NCBI GenBank assembly: GCA_050486345.1
Contig: JBJHDC010000004.1
Location: 1-51,506 of the forward strand
Reading direction: 5' to 3'
Source of the DNA: Dehalococcoidia bacterium
GTDB lineage: Bacteria; Chloroflexota; Dehalococcoidia; UBA2979
Length of the DNA: 51,506 bases
The notes under the pieces: model-generated
Told to the model about the DNA's origin: nothing
The model's input: the letters and a program-made list of their open reading frames with translations, nothing else
Database searches by the model: none
In this document: one piece after another, positions 381 to 11,642 of the stretch
Numbering within the stretch: the first letter of the stretch is position 1
Layout of the letters: the number at the start of each line of letters is the position of its first letter
Position numbers and translations under genes: made by a program

Positions 381-983
381 ATGGTGACAGGCGAGCGGCT
401 GGACCCGGCGTGCACGGCGCTGGTCGTGTTCGACATGCAGAAGGGCCAGCTGGGCATCCCGTGGCGGAAGCAGTTCCTGGATGAGCAGCAGCTGATCCCC
501 CGCTGCGCCGAGCTGATCGAGATCGCCCGCACCGCCGGCATGCCCGTCATCTACGTGCAGAACGTGCGCCAGGCCAACGGCAAGGATCAGCCCGCCGTGA
601 TCACGGACGATAGCCTCGCGGGCGGCGCACCCGATGTGAGCAAGGTCCCGCCCGAGGAGCGCATGGACACCATCGACGAGCTGCGCCCGGAACCGCAGGA
701 CTTCATCGTCGGCAAGATCCGCTGGGGCGCCTTCCACTACACGATCCTCGATAGCCTCCTGCGCACCAACGGCATCGACACCGTGATCATGTGCGGAGTG
801 CGCACGCAGGTCGGCATCGAGGGCTCACTGCGCGACGGCCGCGAGCTCGGCTACCACATGATCGCCGCCCGCGACGCCACCGGCGGCTGCCCCCAGGAGA
901 TGCACGACTACCTGATGGACAACATTTTCCCGATGTTCTCGCGCGTGCGGACGGTGGGGGAGGTGCGGGGGATGGTGGGGTAG
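381..983 (+). CDS. Isochorismatase/cysteine hydrolase family protein (YecD-like)
   Basis: Motifs ALVVFDMQ, K in GKIRWGAF and GVRTQVGIEGSLRD. RBS GAGGAGG upstream; start ATG 381 (alternative GTG 375). Confidence 0.85.
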   Translation: MVTGERLDPACTALVVFDMQKGQLGIPWRKQFLDEQQLIPRCAELIEIARTAGMPVIYVQNVRQANGKDQPAVITDDSLAGGAPDVSKVPPEERMDTIDELRPEPQDFIVGKIRWGAFHYTILDSLLRTNGIDTVIMCGVRTQVGIEGSLRDGRELGYHMIAARDATGGCPQEMHDYLMDNIFPMFSRVRTVGEVRGMVG

Positions 984-985
984 GG

Positions 986-1054
986 GTTTGAGTGAGAACC
1001 CTACACGCCGACCACCGAGTAGGTTAGCAGGAGCACCAGATACCGAACTCAAAC
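986..1054. repeat. Nested imperfect inverted repeat
   Basis: GTTTGAGT (986-993) pairs with ACTCAAAC (1047-1054). Inner AACCCTAC (997-1004) pairs with GTAGGTT (1019-1025) with one bulge. Confidence 0.45.
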
Positions 1055-1081
1055 GATGGAGCCTTGGCCGCCGATCTCGTC

Positions 1082-1230
1082 ACCGCCGTTGACGACTCTC
1101 ACGGCCTCTTCAACGCCAGTCTCACCGCTGGCACCGCCGCGACATCGACGTGCGCGAGGGCGAGGTGGTCGACGCGGATGTGTTCAAGGTGCTGGTCGCG
1201 GAGGCGGTGACGCGGAACTCGGGAGCGTGA
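1082..1230 (+). pseudogene. Frameshifted 3' remnant of a DUF1801-family gene, paralogous to 42663..43061
   Basis: Reads TAVDDSHGLFNASLTAGT, then after a 1-nt shift at ~1135 RRDIDVREGEVVDADVFKVLVAEAVTRNSGA*. Aligns with AALEDPSGLFNASLEGSTRRAIDIQEGETLDAEAFKALIREAVSLN of the intact copy. 5' half missing. Confidence 0.8.
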
Positions 1231-1306
1231 CTGAGCTGCCATCTTGCGAAGCGCACCGAAGGCCTAGTCCACCGTCTCGCGCTAGGCATGCAACGAGGAT
1301 GCTGAC

Positions 1307-2179
1307 CTAGACGGCAGTGAGCTCGGTTCGAATCTTGTTCTGTCGGTAGTATCCATGACCGAGCGAAGCGGAGTTCGCGCTTGCTGCTCGTCTTGGCCAA
1401 CTCGCGCGGAACTCGTCGATGGTCTCGTCGAACGCGGCCGCGAGTGTTCCCGCGAACTCGTCCACCCTCGCGACTTGGCGCACCATCCGATCAAGCGACC
1501 GCTGTGCTCCGTCGAACAGGCGGTAACCCGGATAGAGCGGAAATTCCTCACTGCTATCATCAAGAAGTGCGACGGTCGCGAGGAACCAGACGACGGACTC
1601 ACGGTACTCCTCCTGGTCGATGAACGCCTTCTCGAGTCCAGCGTCCCAGGCGGACGAGAGATAACGCATCGGAAGATCCGCGTACCCGAGAAATGTCTCG
1701 GGAAAGAACAGGATGCTCAGTTCTGGAAGCGGCTTGAAAGACGTGCGGCCCCCGAGCAGCTCAAGTTCTAGGTCGGTCCGGAGGACAACCCGGAGGGAAT
1801 CAGGAGCCTTTTCTCGAACTGCCCTTCCTCCCACGATCAGGAGCAGTCGAAACGCGAGAAATGTGGGTAGCCCGGACGTGAAACGCAGCCCCGACTGACG
1901 GTCCCCGTAGGAGATCAGCGCGGACGCGACATGCAGGGCACCTTCCACACCGTCGCTCCAGTTCTCGCCAGCCGCTGCCGCGTAGAATTCCTCGACGGGG
2001 AACATCAACGGCTGGACTTCACTTACGAAGCTACTCGCGACGGGGATGATCTGGTCCTGGGTGATGTTGGGAGAAAGTTCGGCTCGCCGCTCCTGTAGTT
2101 GAGGAAGGAGTTCGTCGAGTGCGGCGACGACATCGCGCGCCGTAGCGCGCGCGAGCCGTCGACTTTGTGCGTCAGCCAT
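1307..2179 (-). CDS. Hypothetical 290-aa protein, translationally coupled to the upstream NDT-like gene
   Basis: Long ORF. ATG overlaps the upstream stop (ATGGCTGA); GAAGAGG lies 7 nt upstream. No family recognised with confidence. Confidence 0.75.
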   Translation of the reverse strand: MADAQSRRLARATARDVVAALDELLPQLQERRAELSPNITQDQIIPVASSFVSEVQPLMFPVEEFYAAAAGENWSDGVEGALHVASALISYGDRQSGLRFTSGLPTFLAFRLLLIVGGRAVREKAPDSLRVVLRTDLELELLGGRTSFKPLPELSILFFPETFLGYADLPMRYLSSAWDAGLEKAFIDQEEYRESVVWFLATVALLDDSSEEFPLYPGYRLFDGAQRSLDRMVRQVARVDEFAGTLAAAFDETIDEFRASWPRRAASANSASLGHGYYRQNKIRTELTAV

Positions 2180-2849
2180 GAGAGAGCCTCTTCGCCATCT
2201 CAGCCCAGGTTAGGTTGTCAGGCGGATCATCAAGCAGCGAACGAATCTCCGAAGAAGGTCGCGGTGCTCGCCCGAATCCAGACCATCCATGACCGCCGAC
2301 TTCCTCCTCGAGCTCCGTTACCCGGCGCTGAAGGTCAGCAAGATCTGCTATGGCCCCTGCCTCTTCCGAGTTCCCGCCCGATCGTAGGAAGTCGCTCACC
2401 GGATTGTCCTCGCGAGCCGGTTCACTATCGACATCGCGTAGTAGTCCCCGAATCGCGCCTGTAAGGGCTTCGCGTCCCTCCTCGGTCTGCCAATCATACT
2501 CGTGGTTAGCGTAGCCCTGTAGGTCGAACGGGATGTCCGTGCGCCGCTGCGCGATGATGATGCTGCGGTCGGTCAAAGTGTGACGGACTCCTAGCTCATA
2601 GAAGACGTTCGCATTGCGGTCCGTCAGATCTGCGATCACCACGTGCGCGGCCTGGAGATCCTGGAGGATACCCTTCACTAGATTGCCTCGGGTGGCGACC
2701 GATCGTCGGCACTCGTAGCCGAGATCGGGATCGCCTTCCACCGCGGGCTTGAGAAGCGTCTCGAAGATCTCCGTCCACTCCTCCTCTGAACATGAATGGG
2801 TCTCGGCAAACGGCATGATTACGAAACAGAGCCGCGCGGCCGAAGCCAT
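2172..2849 (-). CDS. Nucleoside 2-deoxyribosyltransferase-like (NDT/TIR-like fold) domain protein
   Basis: N-terminal CFVIMPF and IADLTDRNANVFYELGVRH...IPFDL motifs typical of NDT-like nucleotide hydrolase domains. Short coiled coil LADLQRRVTELEEEV. Confidence 0.8.
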   Translation of the reverse strand: MASAARLCFVIMPFAETHSCSEEEWTEIFETLLKPAVEGDPDLGYECRRSVATRGNLVKGILQDLQAAHVVIADLTDRNANVFYELGVRHTLTDRSIIIAQRRTDIPFDLQGYANHEYDWQTEEGREALTGAIRGLLRDVDSEPAREDNPVSDFLRSGGNSEEAGAIADLADLQRRVTELEEEVGGHGWSGFGRAPRPSSEIRSLLDDPPDNLTWAEMAKRLSHG

Positions 2850-2924
2850 CAGCAGGTTCCTCGGGGGAGACTCGTCGAGGCGGACCTCGCAGCAGAATGT
2901 GTCACACCCTCCATCTGCACCCCC

Positions 2925-5900
2925 CTAACTACACCCACTAGTCGCGCCGCAGTTCATGCACTTCAGGCAGGTGCCGTTGCGGACCATCATGAGCTGGCCG
3001 CAGTCGGTGCAGGGGTCGCCTTCGAAGCCGAGCTGGCGTGATTCCTCGCGGGTGAGGGTGCCGGTGGTGGCCGTGGCGACCGCGGCGGCGTGGCCGTTGT
3101 GGGCCTCGAGGGCTACCGCTACGTTCACGCGTCCCGCGCGTCCTTCGACAGGCTCAGGACGAACGGAGGGGGATGGCTCAGGACGAACGGCGGGGGAGAC
3201 GAGCTCGGTGCGCACGGCCACGGGCGCAGCCGCGGCACGCGGGCCGACTGCTGCTGCGGGGGCCGAGGCGTGGACGGGGCGCACCTGGGACTCCAGCGTC
3301 GCCTCGTCGGCGCGGTCGTCGCTGGTGGCCGGGTCCGTGACCAGCTCGATGGGGCCGGTGTGCGCGAGGTCGTCGCGGTCCAGGTAGGTGACGGCCAGCT
3401 CCCGGAAGATGTAGTCGATGATCGAGTTGGCGAACTTCACGCGGTCGTGACCCTGCACCGCGCCCATCGGCTCGAACTTCGTGAACACGAAGCGGTCCAC
3501 GAACTTCTCCAGCGGCACGCCGTACTGCAGGCCCATGGAGATGCTGATCGCGAAGCAGTTCATCAGCGAGCTGAACGCCGCGCCATCCTTGGACGTGTCC
3601 ACGAAGATCTCGCCCAGGCGGCCGTCGTCATACTCGCCGGTGTGCAGGTAGATGGTGTGGCCACCCACCTTCGACTTCTGCGTGTAGCCGGTGCGGCGCG
3701 TGGGCAGCTCCTCGCGCTCCGCGCGGGCGAGGCCGGCGGTGGCGGTCAGCTCCTCCACCTTCAGCGCCAGCATGCGCTCCGCGGCGGCGACCACGGCCTC
3801 CGCCTCCGGCGCATCGACGTCCTCGTCGTCGTACTCATCGATCGCGGCGGTGAGACTGTGTGCGAGCGGCTGCGAGAGCTTGGAGCCGTCCCGGTAGAGG
3901 GCCAGCGCCTTCACCATGCTCTCGGCGGCGGCGGTGTAGACCTCCTTCACCTCGTCAACGGTCGCCTCCAGCGGCATGTTGATGGTCTTGGAGATGGCGC
4001 CGCTGAGGAACGGCTGCGCCGCGGCCAGCGTGCGCACGTGCGCCATCGGCTCAATGAAGCGCGTGCCGTACTTGCCGCACTTGTTGGCGCAGTCGAAGAC
4101 CGCGTAGTGCTCCTCGCGCAGGTGCGGGGCGCCCTCCGTGGTCATGCGGCCCAGGATGTGGTCGTTGGCGGCCTCGATCTCCTCGCTGGAGAAGCCGAGC
4201 GCCGTCAGCATGTTGAAGCCGGGCTGCGCGAGCTCCTCGTCCGTGAAGCCGAGCGAGTCGCGGCAGAAGTCGTCACCCAGGGTGAAGCGGTTGAAGACGA
4301 AGGAGATGTGGAAGGCGGACTTCAGTCCCTCCTCCACGCTGTCCAGCGCGGCACGGGTGAAGCCGCGCTCCGCCAGCGTGTTGCGGTTGATGAAGGGTGC
4401 GCCCTCCAGCATCTGCGTGCCCACGGCGTACTCGATGATCGCGCGCGTCTGCTCCTTCGTGTAGCCGAGGCGCTTGAGGGCGGGGGGCACGGACTCGTTG
4501 ATGATGCGGAAGTAGCCGCCGCCGGCGAGCTTCTTGAACTTCACCAGCGCGAAGTCCGGCTCCACGCCGGTGGTGTCGCAGTCCATGAGCAGGCCGATGG
4601 TGCCCGTGGGGGCGATCAGGGTGGTCTGAGCGTTGCGGTAGCCGTGCGCCTCACCCAGCTCCAGCGCGCGGTCCCAGGCGGTGCGCGCGGAGGTGAGTAG
4701 ATCGGCCGGGCAGACCTCGGCGTCGATGCCGGTGGGGAAGACGCTCAGGCCCTCGTACTCATCGCGCGGCGCGTCGTAGGCGGCGCGGCGGTGGTTGCGG
4801 ATCACGCGCAGCATGTGCTCGCGGTTCTCCTCGAAGCGCGGGAAGGCGCCCAGCTCGCCGGCCATCTCTGCGGAGGTGGCGTAGGAGACGCCGGTGAGCA
4901 CGGCGGAGAGCGCCCCGGTCCACGCCAGCGCCTCCGGCGAGTCGTACGGGATCCCCTCCAGCATCAGCAGCGCACCGAGGTTGGCGTAGCCGAGGCCCAG
5001 CGTGCGGTAGTCGTAGGAGAGGCGCGCGATCTCCTCGGACGGGAACTGCGCCATCAGCACGGAGATCTCGAGCACCACGGTCCACAGGCGCGTCGCGTGC
5101 TCGTAGCCCTCGATGTCGAAGACGCCGGTCTCCAGGTCGGTGAAGGCGAGCAGGTTGAGCGAGGCGAGGTTGCAGGCGGTGTCGTCCAGGAACATGTACT
5201 CGGAGCAGGGGTTGGAGCCGTTGATGCGGCCACCCTCGGGCGTGGTGTGCCACTCATTGATGGTGGTGTCGTATTGCAGGCCGGGATCGGCGCTCTGCCA
5301 CGCCGCCATGGCGATACGGTCCCACAGCTCCCGCGCCGGCAGGGTCTTCGTCACGCGGCCATCGATGCGCGCCGTGAGGTGCCAGTCGCGGTCGTCGTTG
5401 ACGGCGTCCAGGAAGTCCTGCGTCACGCGCACGGAGTTGTTGGAATTCTGGCCGGAGACGGTGACGTAGGCCTCGCCCTGCCAGTCCGTGTCGAACTCGT
5501 TGAAGTCGAGCGTGGTGACGCCCTGGCTCGCCAGCTGCAGCACGCGCTGGATGTAGCCCTCGGTCACGCTGTCGCGGCGGGCGCGCTTGACGGCGCGCCG
5601 CAGCGGGCGGTTCGCGGCGATGTCCAGCCCACCGGCCTCCTCGTCCAGCGCGGCCTCGAGGATCGCGCGCAGGTGGCGGCGGGTGACGGCGGAGCCGGTG
5701 ACGAGTGAAGCGACCTTCTGCTCCTCGTTCACCTTCCAGTCGATGAACTGCTCCACGTCCGGGTGGTCCGCGTCCACGATCACCATCTTGGCGGCGCGGC
5801 GCGTGGTGCCACCGGACTTGATCGCGCCGGCCGCGCGGTCACCGATCTTGAGGAACGACATCAGCCCGGAGGACTTGCCGCCGCCGGAGAGGGATTCGTT

Positions 5901-6599
5901 CTCGCCTCGGATCTGGGAGAAGTTGGAGCCGGTGCCGGAGCCGTACTTGAAGATGCGCGCCTCGCGGGTCCAGAGGTCCATGATGCCGCCGGGGTTCACC
6001 AGATCGTCGGCCACGGACTGGATGAAGCAGGCGTGCGGCTGCGGGCGCTCGTACGCGCTCAGCGAGCGGCGCACCATGTCGGTGGCCGGGTCCACGTAGG
6101 AGTGGCCCTGGGCCGGGCCGGTGATGCCGTAGGCCCAGAAGAGGCCGGTGTTGAACCACTGCGGCGAGTTCGGCGCCGCCATCTGCCGCGCCATCATGTG
6201 GCAGAGCTCGTCGTGGAACGCCTGCGCGTCCGCCTCCGTGTCGAAGTAGCCGTACTTCCAGCCCCAGTAGGTCCACGTCCCGGCGAGCCGCTCGAAGGTC
6301 TGACGAGCGTCCGTCTCGCCGGCGAACTCGGCGTCCTCCGCGGGCAGGCGGCGCTGCAGCCACTCCGGCACGCCATCCTCCGCCACCGGCTCCGTCGCGG
6401 ACGGCACCCCCGCCTTGCGGAAGTACTTCTGCGCCATGATGTCGGAGGCGACCTGGGAGAATGCGGCGGGCATCTGCACGTCGCGCGCCTCGAAGACCAC
6501 GGAGCCATCCGTGTTCACGATGCGAGAGGTGCGGGGAGCGAAGGGGATGCCCTCGTAAGGGTCCTGGTAGGGGGTGGTAAAGCGGCGTTCAATGCGCAT
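2925..6599 (-). CDS. nrdJ: Vitamin B12-dependent class II ribonucleotide reductase
   Basis: [15 protein letters not shown], catalytic NPCSEY, IAPTGTI and GAISKTIN motifs. C-terminal TSCPD domain and CxxC...[11 protein letters not shown] tail. Confidence 0.97.
3142..3198. repeat. REP-like element plus 24-bp tandem duplication inside nrdJ
   Basis: CCTTCGACAGGCTCAGGACGAACGG. The unit GGCTCAGGACGAACGG occurs at 3151-3166 and 3175-3190 and encodes [16 protein letters not shown] on the minus strand. Confidence 0.7.
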
Positions 6600-9350: not shown

Positions 9351-10169
9351 CTAGAGGACGATATCGAGCGCCGTACGGGCCGCGACGAAGAAGATGCCGA
9401 TGCCCAGCATGCGCATGAGGATGCCCTCGCCCAGCCGTCGCCGCACCCAGGAGCCCGCCGGACTGGCGAGGATCACGCCGATTCCGAGCCACGGCACGTC
9501 ACGCATCGGATCGTCCGGGCTACCCATGGCGAGGTGGAGCGCGAGCACACAGGTGGTCTGCAGCACGATCACGAAGTGCATCGTGGGCACCGCGATCGCG
9601 TGTGGCACACGCATCACGCGTGTCAGGATCGGCACCCCGATTGGCCCACCACCGATGCCGGTCAGAGCCGCGAGGAATCCAGAGGCGGCGTTGGGTGCGA
9701 TGCTCGTCACCATCGGCACGCGATAGACGAAGCGGTTGCCCTCGCGATCGACACGCTCCCGTCTCCATGCGCGGCGGCGTGTGGGCGTAGCGATCGTGGC
9801 GACGGGACGCATGATCACGTAGGTACCGATCCCAAACAGCAGCACCGCGAACATGAGCGCGAACGCCTCGCGTGGCAGCTGAGTAGCAGCAAACGCGCCG
9901 AGGAGTGCTGCGGGGATGGTGAGTGAGGCCATGGCGAGCCCCACACGATGGTCCACGCGCCGCTCACGGGCGATCAGCGCGGATTGCGCACCGCTGCTCA
10001 GCAAGACCACCGTGAGGGACGCGGCGGTGATCGCGGCCGGATCTGCCTCCGGGTAGCGAATCAGGAGCAGCGGCCCGATCAGGAACCCACCACCCGCGCC
10101 CGTCGCCGAGGCATACGTGCCGATGGCGAAGCCGACGACGATCAGCGCGATCGCGAGTTCAGGACTCAT
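9351..10169 (-). CDS. Sulfite exporter TauE/SafE family membrane protein
   Basis: Two repeats with GAGGG / GIGGG motifs and about 8 hydrophobic segments. Confidence 0.88.
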   Translation of the reverse strand: MSPELAIALIVVGFAIGTYASATGAGGGFLIGPLLLIRYPEADPAAITAASLTVVLLSSGAQSALIARERRVDHRVGLAMASLTIPAALLGAFAATQLPREAFALMFAVLLFGIGTYVIMRPVATIATPTRRRAWRRERVDREGNRFVYRVPMVTSIAPNAASGFLAALTGIGGGPIGVPILTRVMRVPHAIAVPTMHFVIVLQTTCVLALHLAMGSPDDPMRDVPWLGIGVILASPAGSWVRRRLGEGILMRMLGIGIFFVAARTALDIVL

Positions 10170-10266
10170 GGGCGCAGCCTACGCGGCGATCGCTCACGCG
10201 CAACGGTTTCTGTTGCCGCGATGGAATCTGACATCTACAGTAGGCACCACCCTCGCGCTCAGTCTG

Positions 10267-11262
10267 GTGCCGGCCCTGGAACCATTAGAGCTCGCCCGCG
10301 TCAACCTCACGTCGCCTGCCGTCCTTGCCTTCGTTCTGGGTGCACTTTCGGTCGCGATCCGCAGCGATCTGCGGATGCCCGATGCGGTCTACCAGCTGCT
10401 CTCGATGTATCTGCTCCTGGCGGTAGGCCTCAAGGGTGGAGTCGCATTGTCCGGCGCCTCGGTGGGGGACGTACTGGTCCCGGCGGTGGGGGCGGTAGCG
10501 CTGGGTGCGGTCATCCCGCTGGGTGTCTATCCAGCACTCCGTATGCTCGGCCGGCTGAGCATCCACGATTCCGCTTCCATCGCCGCGCACTATGGGTCCG
10601 TGTCCGTGGTTACGTACACCGCAGCGACCGTGTACCTGGCAGGGGCAAACGAGCCGATCGAGGAGTTCCTGCCGGCGCTGCTGGCGTTGATGGAGATCCC
10701 CGGAATCATCGTGGCCCTCGTGCTGGCGCAGTGGCGGCTGGGGTCAAGCCGCGGGCTGGGCGAGGCCGTCCACGAGGTGGTGACCGGGCGCAGCATCGTG
10801 CTCCTGGGCGGCGGGCTGATGATCGGCCTGCTGGCGGGCGCCGAGGGCACCGCGCCGATCGCGCCAGTGTTCGTCGACCTGTTCCAGGGGGTACTGGTGC
10901 TGTTCCTGCTGGAGCTGGGCGTGAACGCCGCGCAGCGCGGTCGCGATGTGCTGCGCGGGGGGCGCTTCCTGGTGAGCTTTGGTGTGATTACGCCGCTGGT
11001 GCTGGGGACGGCCGGCGCCCTGGTGGGCGTGATGGCCGGCCTCTCACCCGGTGGCGCGGCAACGCTCGCGACGCTCTCGGCGAGCGCCTCATACATTGCC
11101 GCACCGGCCGCCGTGCGCATCGCGCTCCCGGAGGCGAATCCGGGGCTGTCGCTGGCGGCGGCGCTGGCCATCACGTTTCCCTTCAACCTCGTCATCGGCA
11201 TTCCCGTGTACCACCAGCTAGCGCAGTGGTTACACGGCTTCGAGTTCCTCACCATCGGCTAG
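10267..11262 (+). CDS. sbtA: Sodium-dependent bicarbonate transporter SbtA family permease
   Basis: SDLRMP, YLLLAVGLKGG, AAHYGSVSVVT, LMEIPGII, SASYIAAPAA and ITFPFN motifs. Start uncertain; GTG 10267 chosen because the ORF-track start overlaps tauE. Confidence 0.9.
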   Translation: MPALEPLELARVNLTSPAVLAFVLGALSVAIRSDLRMPDAVYQLLSMYLLLAVGLKGGVALSGASVGDVLVPAVGAVALGAVIPLGVYPALRMLGRLSIHDSASIAAHYGSVSVVTYTAATVYLAGANEPIEEFLPALLALMEIPGIIVALVLAQWRLGSSRGLGEAVHEVVTGRSIVLLGGGLMIGLLAGAEGTAPIAPVFVDLFQGVLVLFLLELGVNAAQRGRDVLRGGRFLVSFGVITPLVLGTAGALVGVMAGLSPGGAATLATLSASASYIAAPAAVRIALPEANPGLSLAAALAITFPFNLVIGIPVYHQLAQWLHGFEFLTIG

Positions 11263-11327
11263 ACGGTGCGCACGATCGGGTAGGCTGGCGATATCAGCGC
11301 GCGTGGTGGAGGCAGGCAGGCACGCAG

Positions 11328-11642
11328 ATGACAACTGAACCCATGACGCTCCTCACTATCGTGGCTGAAGAGGTGCTGGAGCAGCGATTGATTCGCGATA
11401 TGCACCAGCACGGGATCGCCGGTTACACCATCACACGCGCCCGTGGCGAGGGCGCACGCGGCATGCGAGAAGGTGCGGCAGGCTCGAACATTCGTGTGGA
11501 GACGGTCACCACTGACGAGCTGGCGAACACATTGCTCGAGCACCTGCATGCCACGTACTTCACCAACTACGCGATCGTGGCATGGCTCGCCGAGGTCCGT
11601 GTGGCGCGCCCGGAGAAATACCGCCCAGCCCCCGGGGGCTGA
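11328..11642 (+). CDS. sbtB: PII-like signalling protein SbtB
   Basis: LLTIVAEEVLEQRL...GYTITRARGEGARG...NIRVETV...YFTNYAIVAW...VRVARPEKY, immediately after sbtA. Confidence 0.88.
   Translation: MTTEPMTLLTIVAEEVLEQRLIRDMHQHGIAGYTITRARGEGARGMREGAAGSNIRVETVTTDELANTLLEHLHATYFTNYAIVAWLAEVRVARPEKYRPAPGG

Follow-up and report, generated by a model that had tools for sequence, protein, structure and literature searches.

A gene for an NDT/TIR-like N-glycosidase domain and a helical C-terminal domain, split at its linker beside nrdJ in a Dehalococcoidia bacterium, is a putative anti-phage effector

The 51,506-nt stretch of DNA analysed here (the window) is the entire contig C4 (JBJHDC010000004.1) of a Dehalococcoidia bacterium of the UBA2979 lineage, whose 2.84-Mb genome is assembled in 242 contigs and is 94.7% complete. 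Two open reading frames (ORFs) at positions 1307 to 2849, downstream of the ribonucleotide reductase gene nrdJ, had originally been predicted to form a two-gene defence cassette of an NDT-like effector and a helical partner. Judged by their alignment with relatives, the upstream ORF B and the downstream ORF A are instead the N- and C-terminal halves of a family that is normally one protein of about 500 aa. The reading that we favour, with moderate confidence, is that of one gene family whose product begins with an N-glycosidase domain of NDT/TIR fold, its Glu being part of a YELG motif, and continues through a helical stalk into a helical C-terminal domain of about 290 aa (C-domain); the copy in the window would be a putative anti-phage effector that was acquired horizontally and split at the linker by a +1 frame change. 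What was computed here comprises the fold and the invariant Glu, along with the architecture, distribution and genomic contexts of the family. Both ORFs proved to lie at the predicted coordinates, co-oriented, with an 8-nt overlap, 75 bp downstream of nrdJ and on the minus strand, and the two peptides quoted in the prediction, CFVIMPF...ADLTDRNANVFYELG and LPTFLAFRLLLIVGGRAV...LRVVL, were found within them. The features of the gene are as follows.

2172-2849, minus strand: ORF B, 225 aa; residues 1-145 form the NDT/TIR-like N-glycosidase domain and residues 150-186 a long stalk helix, followed by a low-confidence linker and a terminal helix (residues 215-224).
2595-2597, minus strand: encodes Glu85 of YELG, which is predicted to be catalytic and is conserved without exception in the 40 relatives aligned.
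2178-2246, minus strand: ORF B tail, residues 202-224, predicted to dock on ORF A (interface residues in the complex model 202-206, 209, 214-220 and 222-224).
2172-2179, minus strand: 8-nt overlap of ORF A and ORF B, ATGGCTGA; the fission point, where the ORF B frame passes into the ORF A frame (+1).
1307-2179, minus strand: ORF A, 290 aa; helical throughout apart from a single small hairpin.

Among its relatives, ORF A was best matched by a 508-aa protein (P0002) whose start resembles ORF B and whose end resembles ORF A. When P0002 was aligned with this genome, residues 2-231 were matched in the ORF B frame (59% identity) and residues 210-496 in the ORF A frame (48%); a search for related loci in the genome_contigs database with P0002 yielded one irrelevant short match. 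The homology tracks the ORF B frame to ...LTWAEMAKRLSHG and then the +1 frame of ORF A from ADAQSRRLARATARDV; thus, the break is the overlap itself, ATGGCTGA, which lies in the interdomain linker and contains both the ATG of ORF A and the TGA of ORF B. Word-indexed homolog searches with ORF A as the query returned at least 4 and at least 6 matches. A phmmer search of 1.84 billion representative sequences with P0002 returned 15,188 proteins at E ≤ 1e-3, 2,578 at 1e-10 and 155 at 1e-30, and 16 full-length two-domain proteins of 487-532 aa (P0125-P0140) were present among the 150 matches listed. Metagenomes scanned with an alignment of the C-domain gave 28 loci, and in 21 of these both domains are unbroken in one frame, including 19 complete ORFs of 489-511 aa and 2 that end at the contig end. 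The other seven are (i) two loci split at the linker (L029 and L031); (ii) four damaged elsewhere, by an in-frame stop (L026), 5′ truncation (L027) or frameshifts (L037 and L040); and (iii) one uninformative fragment (L039). Since single proteins of 487-532 aa align colinearly with the two ORFs, the pair represents the fission of one gene at the interdomain linker, and the predicted two-gene cassette gives way to a gene that is single in most relatives. The frame change was also seen in a Logan contig from run X1, the sole run in which the stretch was found; X1 is a DNA run, stored as contigs, of a mine-tailings metagenome that is probably the sample of origin of this genome. This contig spans positions 2043-3000 with zero differences at a depth of about 7 (contigs hide rare variants); because it bridges the junction and is identical across it, the frameshifted arrangement is unlikely to be an artefact of a single assembler.

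The AlphaFold2 (AF2) model of ORF B (predicted local distance difference test, pLDDT, 87.3) contains a five-stranded α/β domain at residues 1-145, of the flavodoxin-like type seen in the NDT/DNPH1/MilB superfamily. By Foldseek, the best matches of this model were the enzymes NDT, MilB and DNPH1 at E-values of 6.4e-5 to 1e-3, led by a cyanobacterial NDT (8pqt, 6.4e-5), with TIR domains also among the best. Structural comparison by VIA gave Z 13.7 for both DNPH1 (8rps_B; root-mean-square deviation [rmsd] 2.6 over 123 residues) and MilB (4ohr; 137 residues), the rmsd of the DNPH1 and MilB matches being 2.6-3.0 over 123-137 residues, compared with Z 12.7 for the TIR domain of SfSTING and 12.0 for the TIR-APAZ protein of SPARTA. 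The domain is named NDT/TIR-like here because the NDT-type enzymes are ahead by only about 1 Z unit. Fourteen residues were invariant in the 40 aligned relatives (P13, W25, C47, R49, A73, V82, Y84, E85, L86, G87, R89, H90, Y118 and P150). Profile alignment placed E85 onto the Glu of the DNPH1 motif GVGYELG (E 1.6), which is weak alone and agrees with the fold, and onto the Glu of the AbTIR motif NYELDG, which is likewise weak alone and was obtained with a profile that included one true TIR protein (P0150). We take the Glu of GYELG in DNPH1 and that of NYELDG in AbTIR to be catalytic residues. The original assignment of ORF B to an NDT/TIR fold with a Glu at the catalytic position agrees with the fold matches and with the placement of Glu85. 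The ORF B domain is predicted to cleave the N-glycosidic bond of a nucleotide or nucleoside.

At the level of family profiles, ORF B was matched by the PADLOC model PDLC00733 "Effector TIR" (E 1.7e-10, residues 26-125), the sole match in the profile libraries beyond two weak ones in Pfam at E ≤ 1, one of them to the family CAP12-PCTIR_TIR (E 0.16). No match was found in NCBIfam, to Pfam Nuc_deoxyrib_tr (PF05014) at E ≤ 1 or to the Pfam TIR and TIR_2 families (PF01582 and PF13676). Among the 40 relatives, Nuc_deoxyrib_tr was matched below its gathering threshold in 16 (best E 6e-5) and CAP12-PCTIR_TIR in 10. The family of the N-terminal domain (N-domain) is large, with 2,369 matches, and the domain is elsewhere joined to NUDIX, radical SAM, FGE-sulfatase, GAF and ParB-CE domains. 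Relatives of P0002 were also present in 91 plasmid records, 43 of them conjugative, and in 49 phage records, which by organism name are chiefly of Streptococcus (24) and Staphylococcus (16); in both sets the N-domain alone matches. The one phage record that was opened, Staphylococcus phage P630 (L051), encodes at 4992-5642 a 216-aa relative that consists of the N-domain only and has a weak Nuc_deoxyrib_tr match; this small gene is encoded against the direction of the P630 replication module, like a moron gene.

The AF2 model of ORF A was of higher confidence (pLDDT 95.4, predicted template modelling score 0.93), and the C-domain carries the conserved motifs RFxxGxPxxLAWRLL, LFxPExFLGxAD, PLYPGYR and W...AN. 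ORF A was without a match in Pfam, PADLOC, NCBIfam or the PDB sequences, and Foldseek returned nothing at E ≤ 1e-3 for its model. The best scores in the wider VIA comparison (Z up to 6.1, to HEAT-like and designed helical repeats) are within the noise for helical proteins and are no proof of a new fold. Searches of the ESM Atlas provided leads of low recognition value, namely unlabelled stand-alone clusters of 274-293 aa (scores 0.94-0.97) and a TIR/SEFIR-labelled cluster (0.77). The C-domain was further detected behind N-terminal parts other than the NDT-like domain: TIR_2 in P0150 (E 2.2e-44), AAA_31/ParA plus RNase_H_2 in P0208 (E 6.1e-36), the crotonase-fold ECH_1 in P0186 (E 2.5e-38) and RHH in P0173 (E 6.6e-40). 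In a quick IQ-TREE tree, for which only SH-aLRT support was calculated, these four proteins are scattered among the NDT-like fusions, which indicates repeated swaps of the N-terminal domain around the C-domain. The occurrence of the C-domain behind such varied N-termini points to a sensor or regulatory part. The original prediction had cast ORF A as the possible sensor of an effector-swapping system, and the swapping of N-terminal parts is borne out; the SIR2 and caspase effectors that it named were, however, absent from the 28 proteins scanned.

The split form was weighed as a working arrangement against the possibility, which we take seriously yet regard as unlikely, that the gene is a pseudogene, in which a single-protein effector, costly or toxic, was recently inactivated by a frameshift in a single step and the two ORFs remain as non-cooperating remnants. 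Both halves are full length without an internal stop, and the break falls precisely in the linker, no more than about 5 residues from the split in L029 and L031. In these two loci the split is clean and at the equivalent linker position, with a TAA stop, 2-4 nt and a separate ATG, and both halves, which share only 62% and 54% identity between the two loci, are intact, which shows long retention of the split. In the same quick tree L029 and L031 form their own clade (support 100), whereas ORF A of the window groups with the fused proteins P0002, P0125 and P0128 (support 96); therefore, at least two independent fissions took place. When ORF B and ORF A were modelled as a complex, a score of 0.74 was obtained (runs 0.74, 0.74 and 0.65) compared with 0.00 for the best of three controls, a score of 0.74 being reached by 116 of 157 solved complexes and by 2 of 215 mismatched pairs. 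Contact agreement was at least 42% and the pLDDT of the partner at least 69 in these runs, and the confident contacts join residues 202-224 of ORF B to residues 2-20 and 58-77 of ORF A.

Other observations tell against a working split form. The fused form is the norm, many other copies are damaged (L026, L027, L037, L040 and, in three frames, the copy of the related genome G014), and the split in the window may likewise be decay. P0043 and P0004 look like pieces of one broken copy, the sole basis being that both are on contigs 63,056 long, and a decayed gene remnant adjoins the gene in the window. The ATG of ORF A stands 7 nt after AAGAGG, which resembles a Shine-Dalgarno (SD) sequence; both fall within the coding sequence of ORF B, need not be selected and are perhaps fortuitous. 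Furthermore, halves of split genes tend to pass the complex test, and the input alignments held fused proteins, which is not the kind of input for which the score was calibrated. On balance, we consider a functional two-subunit form plausible, in which, according to the model, the C-terminal tail of ORF B would hold it on the first helices of ORF A and the pair could act as a two-subunit enzyme. Two additional proteins may be further split forms: P0209 (336 aa, 64 member sequences), which is a C-domain only and starts in the linker, and P0006 (221 aa), which is ORF B-like, 69% identical to it and ends where ORF B ends.

The distribution of the gene was found to be patchy, as the original prediction had proposed to check. 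A match of any kind to P0002 was present in 6 of 61 genomes of relatives, and the profile of the C-domain was matched in only 1 of 401 genomes sampled across the phylum, namely this one. The only other full-length copy, in 1 of those 61 genomes and of the 36 same-family genomes searched (G014), is broken. This copy (L041, G014:C18 9280-10790) is in three frames with stops and has a low GC content at third codon positions (GC3); it is positioned between an ABC transporter gene and genes for PNPOx and nicotinate phosphoribosyltransferase, and not beside nrdJ. Its placement next to the latter two genes, which belong to NAD salvage, is probably due to chance. Evidence of mobility came from a subgroup of the fused relatives, whose DNA identity of 80-98% starts about 150 bp upstream of the gene, stops about 25 bp downstream of it and gives way to unrelated flanks. 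The copies with identity bounded in this way, as determined by DNA comparison, are:

L013: 5021-6703
L014: 5790-7473
L016: 2687-4382
L017: 9212-10899
L022: 5314-6985

Since the identity is bounded to the gene amid unrelated flanks, the gene is mobile as a segment of about 1.7 kb, and in this subgroup it looks like a discrete single-gene mobile unit. The conserved upstream stretch of about 150 bp ends in a TATAAT-like box in these copies. The gene in the window likewise looks to have been acquired horizontally.

Neighbours were annotated for 20 of the 28 metagenomic loci (149 ORFs), with 7 short loci and the duplicate L033 set aside. Defence genes were detected (i) immediately upstream in L022, as GajA (E 9e-197) and GajB (E 6.7e-213); (ii) in L035, as type III restriction-modification, PDC-M19B and a UvrD-PDDEXK protein, along with phage tail and ParB genes; (iii) in L036, as a type IIG restriction-modification enzyme with a TnsA-like gene; (iv) in L016, as BsobI-type restriction-modification and REase-ARP; and (v) adjoining in L032 (an HNH type II restriction endonuclease) and L014 (PDC-S44/DUF429). 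L038 has a weak LmuB-like match, and L018 and L039 match the PADLOC "OGG" model. Genes of mobile elements were found in L017 (an integrase, a serine recombinase and RusA) and L034 (Prim-Pol), and the neighbours in the remaining annotated loci are of no recognised family. Several results weigh on the other side: housekeeping genes are the only neighbours in at least 5 of the 20 loci (L015, L024, L025, L027 and L030); no relative of the C-domain was found in viral contigs; the window itself has no other defence gene; and many of the loci are on short contigs. In contrast to the neighbours of the relatives, the 44 other ORFs in the window, a small control that is not one of matched random loci, yielded no match to a specific defence family and only generic ABC, methyltransferase and oxidoreductase cross-matches. 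We therefore regard the association of the relatives with defence genes as suggestive. The defence-island association that the original prediction proposed to test is suggested to the extent that relatives are often beside defence or mobile genes; the window itself is no defence island over the length of the contig, one end of which is 1.3 kb from the gene.

In the mechanism that we propose, the enzyme activity, substrate, trigger and defence role are drawn by analogy with Swarozyc and Avs-DUF4062, for which such a mode of action is reported, and with ThsI, for which it is proposed. The helical C-domain would keep the N-glycosidase inactive until an infection cue is received; this cue would act through the C-domain to switch on the enzyme, probably through oligomerisation, and the active enzyme would destroy NAD+ or a (deoxy)nucleotide, such that abortive infection would halt phage growth. 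A different view of the trigger, which strikes us as rather unlikely, is that the C-domain receives a nucleotide second messenger or metabolite made elsewhere, as TPR-S, SAVED and CARF domains do, and not a phage protein. Among described proteins, ThsI is the closest relative of the N-domain, and its activator is reported to be cyclic ADP-ribose (cADPR) (bioRxiv 10.64898/2025.12.03.692087); the outputs joined to the C-domain (TIR, nuclease-like and RHH DNA-binding) are in the range typical of ligand sensors. The invariant polar and aromatic motifs of the C-domain are no less compatible with a binding site for a small molecule than with a sensor of phage protein; considered with the RHH-fused form, they make small-molecule binding by the C-domain possible. 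Counter to an external signal, a cyclase or TIR gene was encoded by none of the 149 neighbouring ORFs and was not found beside the genes in the window, PF13676 was not matched anywhere in the genome at its 94.7% completeness, and a conserved neighbouring gene is altogether absent. The original observation that the pair lacks a known partner such as a reverse transcriptase or cyclase is likewise upheld, as neither of these nor a TIR gene was found among the neighbours in the window. A broader and speculative proposal is that the ORF A domain represents a new receptor module of wide occurrence. Like CARF, SAVED and TPR-S, it would respond to a small-molecule signal of immunity or a metabolite linked to infection, drive at least five outputs (an NDT-like N-glycosidase, canonical TIR, a ParA plus RNase-H-like nuclease, a crotonase/ClpP-fold enzyme and an RHH repressor) and work either fused or as a separate subunit.

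The position of the gene beside nrdJ was next considered together with the flanking features, which are:

2850-2924, minus strand: 75-bp spacer from the nrdJ stop to the ORF B start, with GAGGAA 7 nt ahead of the ATG.
2925-6599, minus strand: nrdJ, class II ribonucleotide reductase, with Ribonuc_red_lgC, class II N-terminal and TSCPD domains.
About 1040-1230, plus strand: C-terminal end of a resident gene, left as a frameshifted remnant at the downstream border, of which two window frames match one frame of the related genome G013 (L043); weak.

This position would suit a housekeeping hydrolase of nucleotide salvage or sanitising (of the DNPH1, MilB or NDT type) that cooperates with the dNTP (deoxynucleoside triphosphate)-producing nrdJ. 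The top structural matches of ORF B are indeed metabolic, and the gene is co-oriented with nrdJ without a terminator-like site in the 75 bp between them. We nevertheless find this explanation highly improbable: a ribonucleotide reductase gene was not found among the 149 neighbours in the 20 annotated loci, where a TIR gene and a shared neighbour were likewise absent, nor beside the G014 copy; the only full-length copy in 36 same-family genomes is broken; the codon usage is foreign; and relatives are carried on conjugative plasmids and temperate phages. The functional link to nrdJ that had been raised originally is thus not sustained; the adjacency is a matter of chance, and in the proposed mechanism the place beside nrdJ would be incidental. 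Least probable of all is continued production of one fused protein through +1 ribosomal frameshifting at GGC-UGA-C. In its favour, the frame of ORF A is +1 to that of ORF B, the join would be colinear with the fused relatives, and the UGA-C stop context at the overlap is that of the prfB frameshift site. On the other hand, GGC is not known as a slippery codon, the SD-like AAGAGG is too far upstream by comparison with prfB, and the halves in L029 and L031 do not overlap, the first ending in TAA and the second following after 2-4 nt.

Composition sets the gene apart from its surroundings, consistent with the codon bias noted originally: the GC3 is 0.65 in ORF B and 0.68 in ORF A compared with 0.94 in nrdJ and 0.95 in the isochorismatase-family gene at 375-983, and the GC content is 0.60-0.62 over positions 1000-3000 compared with 0.67-0.74 in the flanks. 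Of the borders described in the original prediction, the broken gene is partly recovered as the C-terminal remnant in two frames at about 1040-1230 (plus strand), for which the support is weak. Both of its pieces match one continuous frame in G013 (E 3.9e-4 and 0.055, in a tiny database), and it may mark a rearrangement at the border of the gene. The remnant has native-like GC-rich codons, and its counterpart in G013 is in one frame (L043:1487-1624). A DNA search of the left flank in relatives returned short GC-rich matches only. The inverted repeat reported there was not substantiated; only short or imperfect pairs of 10-20 nt, mostly 75-92% complementary and at the level of chance, were detected. 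A scan of positions 900-3100 found neither a sigma-70-like promoter nor a terminator-like site, and co-transcription of the gene with nrdJ is possible. The C-terminus of nrdJ (2925-3400, minus strand) has a long extension beyond the TSCPD domain. It comprises a Pro/Ala-rich low-complexity stretch, in which a short segment is duplicated in tandem at about 3140-3200, and ends in a Cys-rich motif that resembles a zinc ribbon. Elsewhere in the window, a 564-aa ORF at 9948-11642 (plus strand) has an unusually low GC3 of 0.57 and a sole Pfam match, to a P-II domain at residues 466-557; the long region ahead of this domain may reflect a wrongly called frame or a further foreign segment.

The closest described architecture was found on a conjugative plasmid of A. 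baumannii (L050, NZ_CP103340.1), which encodes a protein that is 31% identical to ORF B (E 6e-18) and continues into TPR-S. Its operon is arranged as:

L050, 5573-7788: ThsB_TIR - (ORF B-like domain + TPR-S) - ThsB_TIR, beside AlwI restriction-modification, BrnT/BrnA and a PIN-like gene.

From its domains, this operon looks like a type VIII Thoeris system. The preprint on that system describes ThsI as a "CMP hydrolase" domain plus TPR-S that is switched on by cADPR, with an abortive-infection mode that is proposed (bioRxiv 10.64898/2025.12.03.692087). The N-domains are homologous, sharing the motifs CFV(I/V)M and ADxTxxNANxxYELGxRH between ORF B and the plasmid protein, and in both architectures an effector of N-glycosidase fold is followed by a helical domain. 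The protein of the window differs from ThsI in that it is in two pieces, neither ORF A nor ORF B has a TPR-S or TPR match (Pfam, E ≤ 1), and structure searches with the ORF A model yielded nothing significant. It differs from type VIII Thoeris in that no ThsB TIR gene was found beside it or among the 149 neighbours of its relatives, and PF13676 was not matched in the genome (94.7% complete; PF08937 was not searched genome-wide).

A second point of comparison is Swarozyc, which is described as a DUF4062 TIR-like domain, a stalk and an auxiliary domain, activated by phage portal and acting as a NADase (bioRxiv 10.64898/2026.05.01.722283); in another preprint, the "CMP hydrolase" effector of an Avs protein proved to be a DUF4062 NADase (bioRxiv 10.64898/2026.09.04.749371). 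Going by those descriptions, the present family resembles Swarozyc and DUF4062 (NIR) proteins in its TIR/NDT-superfamily domain with a catalytic Glu, helical stalk and C-terminal auxiliary domain, on one polypeptide in the fused relatives, as well as in its patchy distribution and near-identical copies in different neighbourhoods. It differs in that ORF B has no match to DUF4062 (PF13271) at E ≤ 1 and none was present among the best 25 of 66 families for the 40 relatives; activation by phage portal, as described in that source, belongs to Swarozyc, and ORF B and ORF A are known here from sequence and models. DNPH1, MilB and NDT of the PF05014 clan are the best structural matches of ORF B and have the YELG-type Glu in common with it, whereas they are small stand-alone metabolic proteins without a stalk or C-domain and ORF B misses PF05014. 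The TIR effectors of CBASS and Pycsar are similar in that ORF B matches PDLC00733 and, weakly, CAP12-PCTIR_TIR, but no cyclase (CD-NTase or PycC), SAVED or STING domain was found in the ORFs or the neighbours scanned. ORF B is also akin to the effector of the retron Ec86/Eco1, which we take to be an NDT-fold protein used in defence, but no reverse transcriptase was found among the neighbours scanned (the retron ncRNA was not searched for).

The description of the pair as new, made in the original prediction, therefore applies to one domain and not the other. The N-domain is already known, as a member of an effector superfamily and a homolog of the effector domain of ThsI, including in a plasmid protein of ThsI architecture. 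What seems new is the C-domain, together with its architecture behind an NDT-like domain, for which there is no Pfam, PADLOC or NCBIfam model and no PDB relative. Word searches of the literature, with preprint supplements outside their scope, found related systems and no description of the NDT-like plus C-domain architecture, although an earlier mention is possible.

For this genome, these results correct the tempting link to ribonucleotide reductase. For the family, if the proposed function is true, a sensor or regulatory domain without a profile or solved structure would join the TIR/NDT-type effectors of abortive infection, and the effector domain of ThsI would be used outside of Thoeris, without a TIR signal generator. 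The occurrence of the same protein both in fused form and, in two or more independent lineages, as halves divided at the linker is a natural experiment that makes the interface of sensor and effector directly testable.

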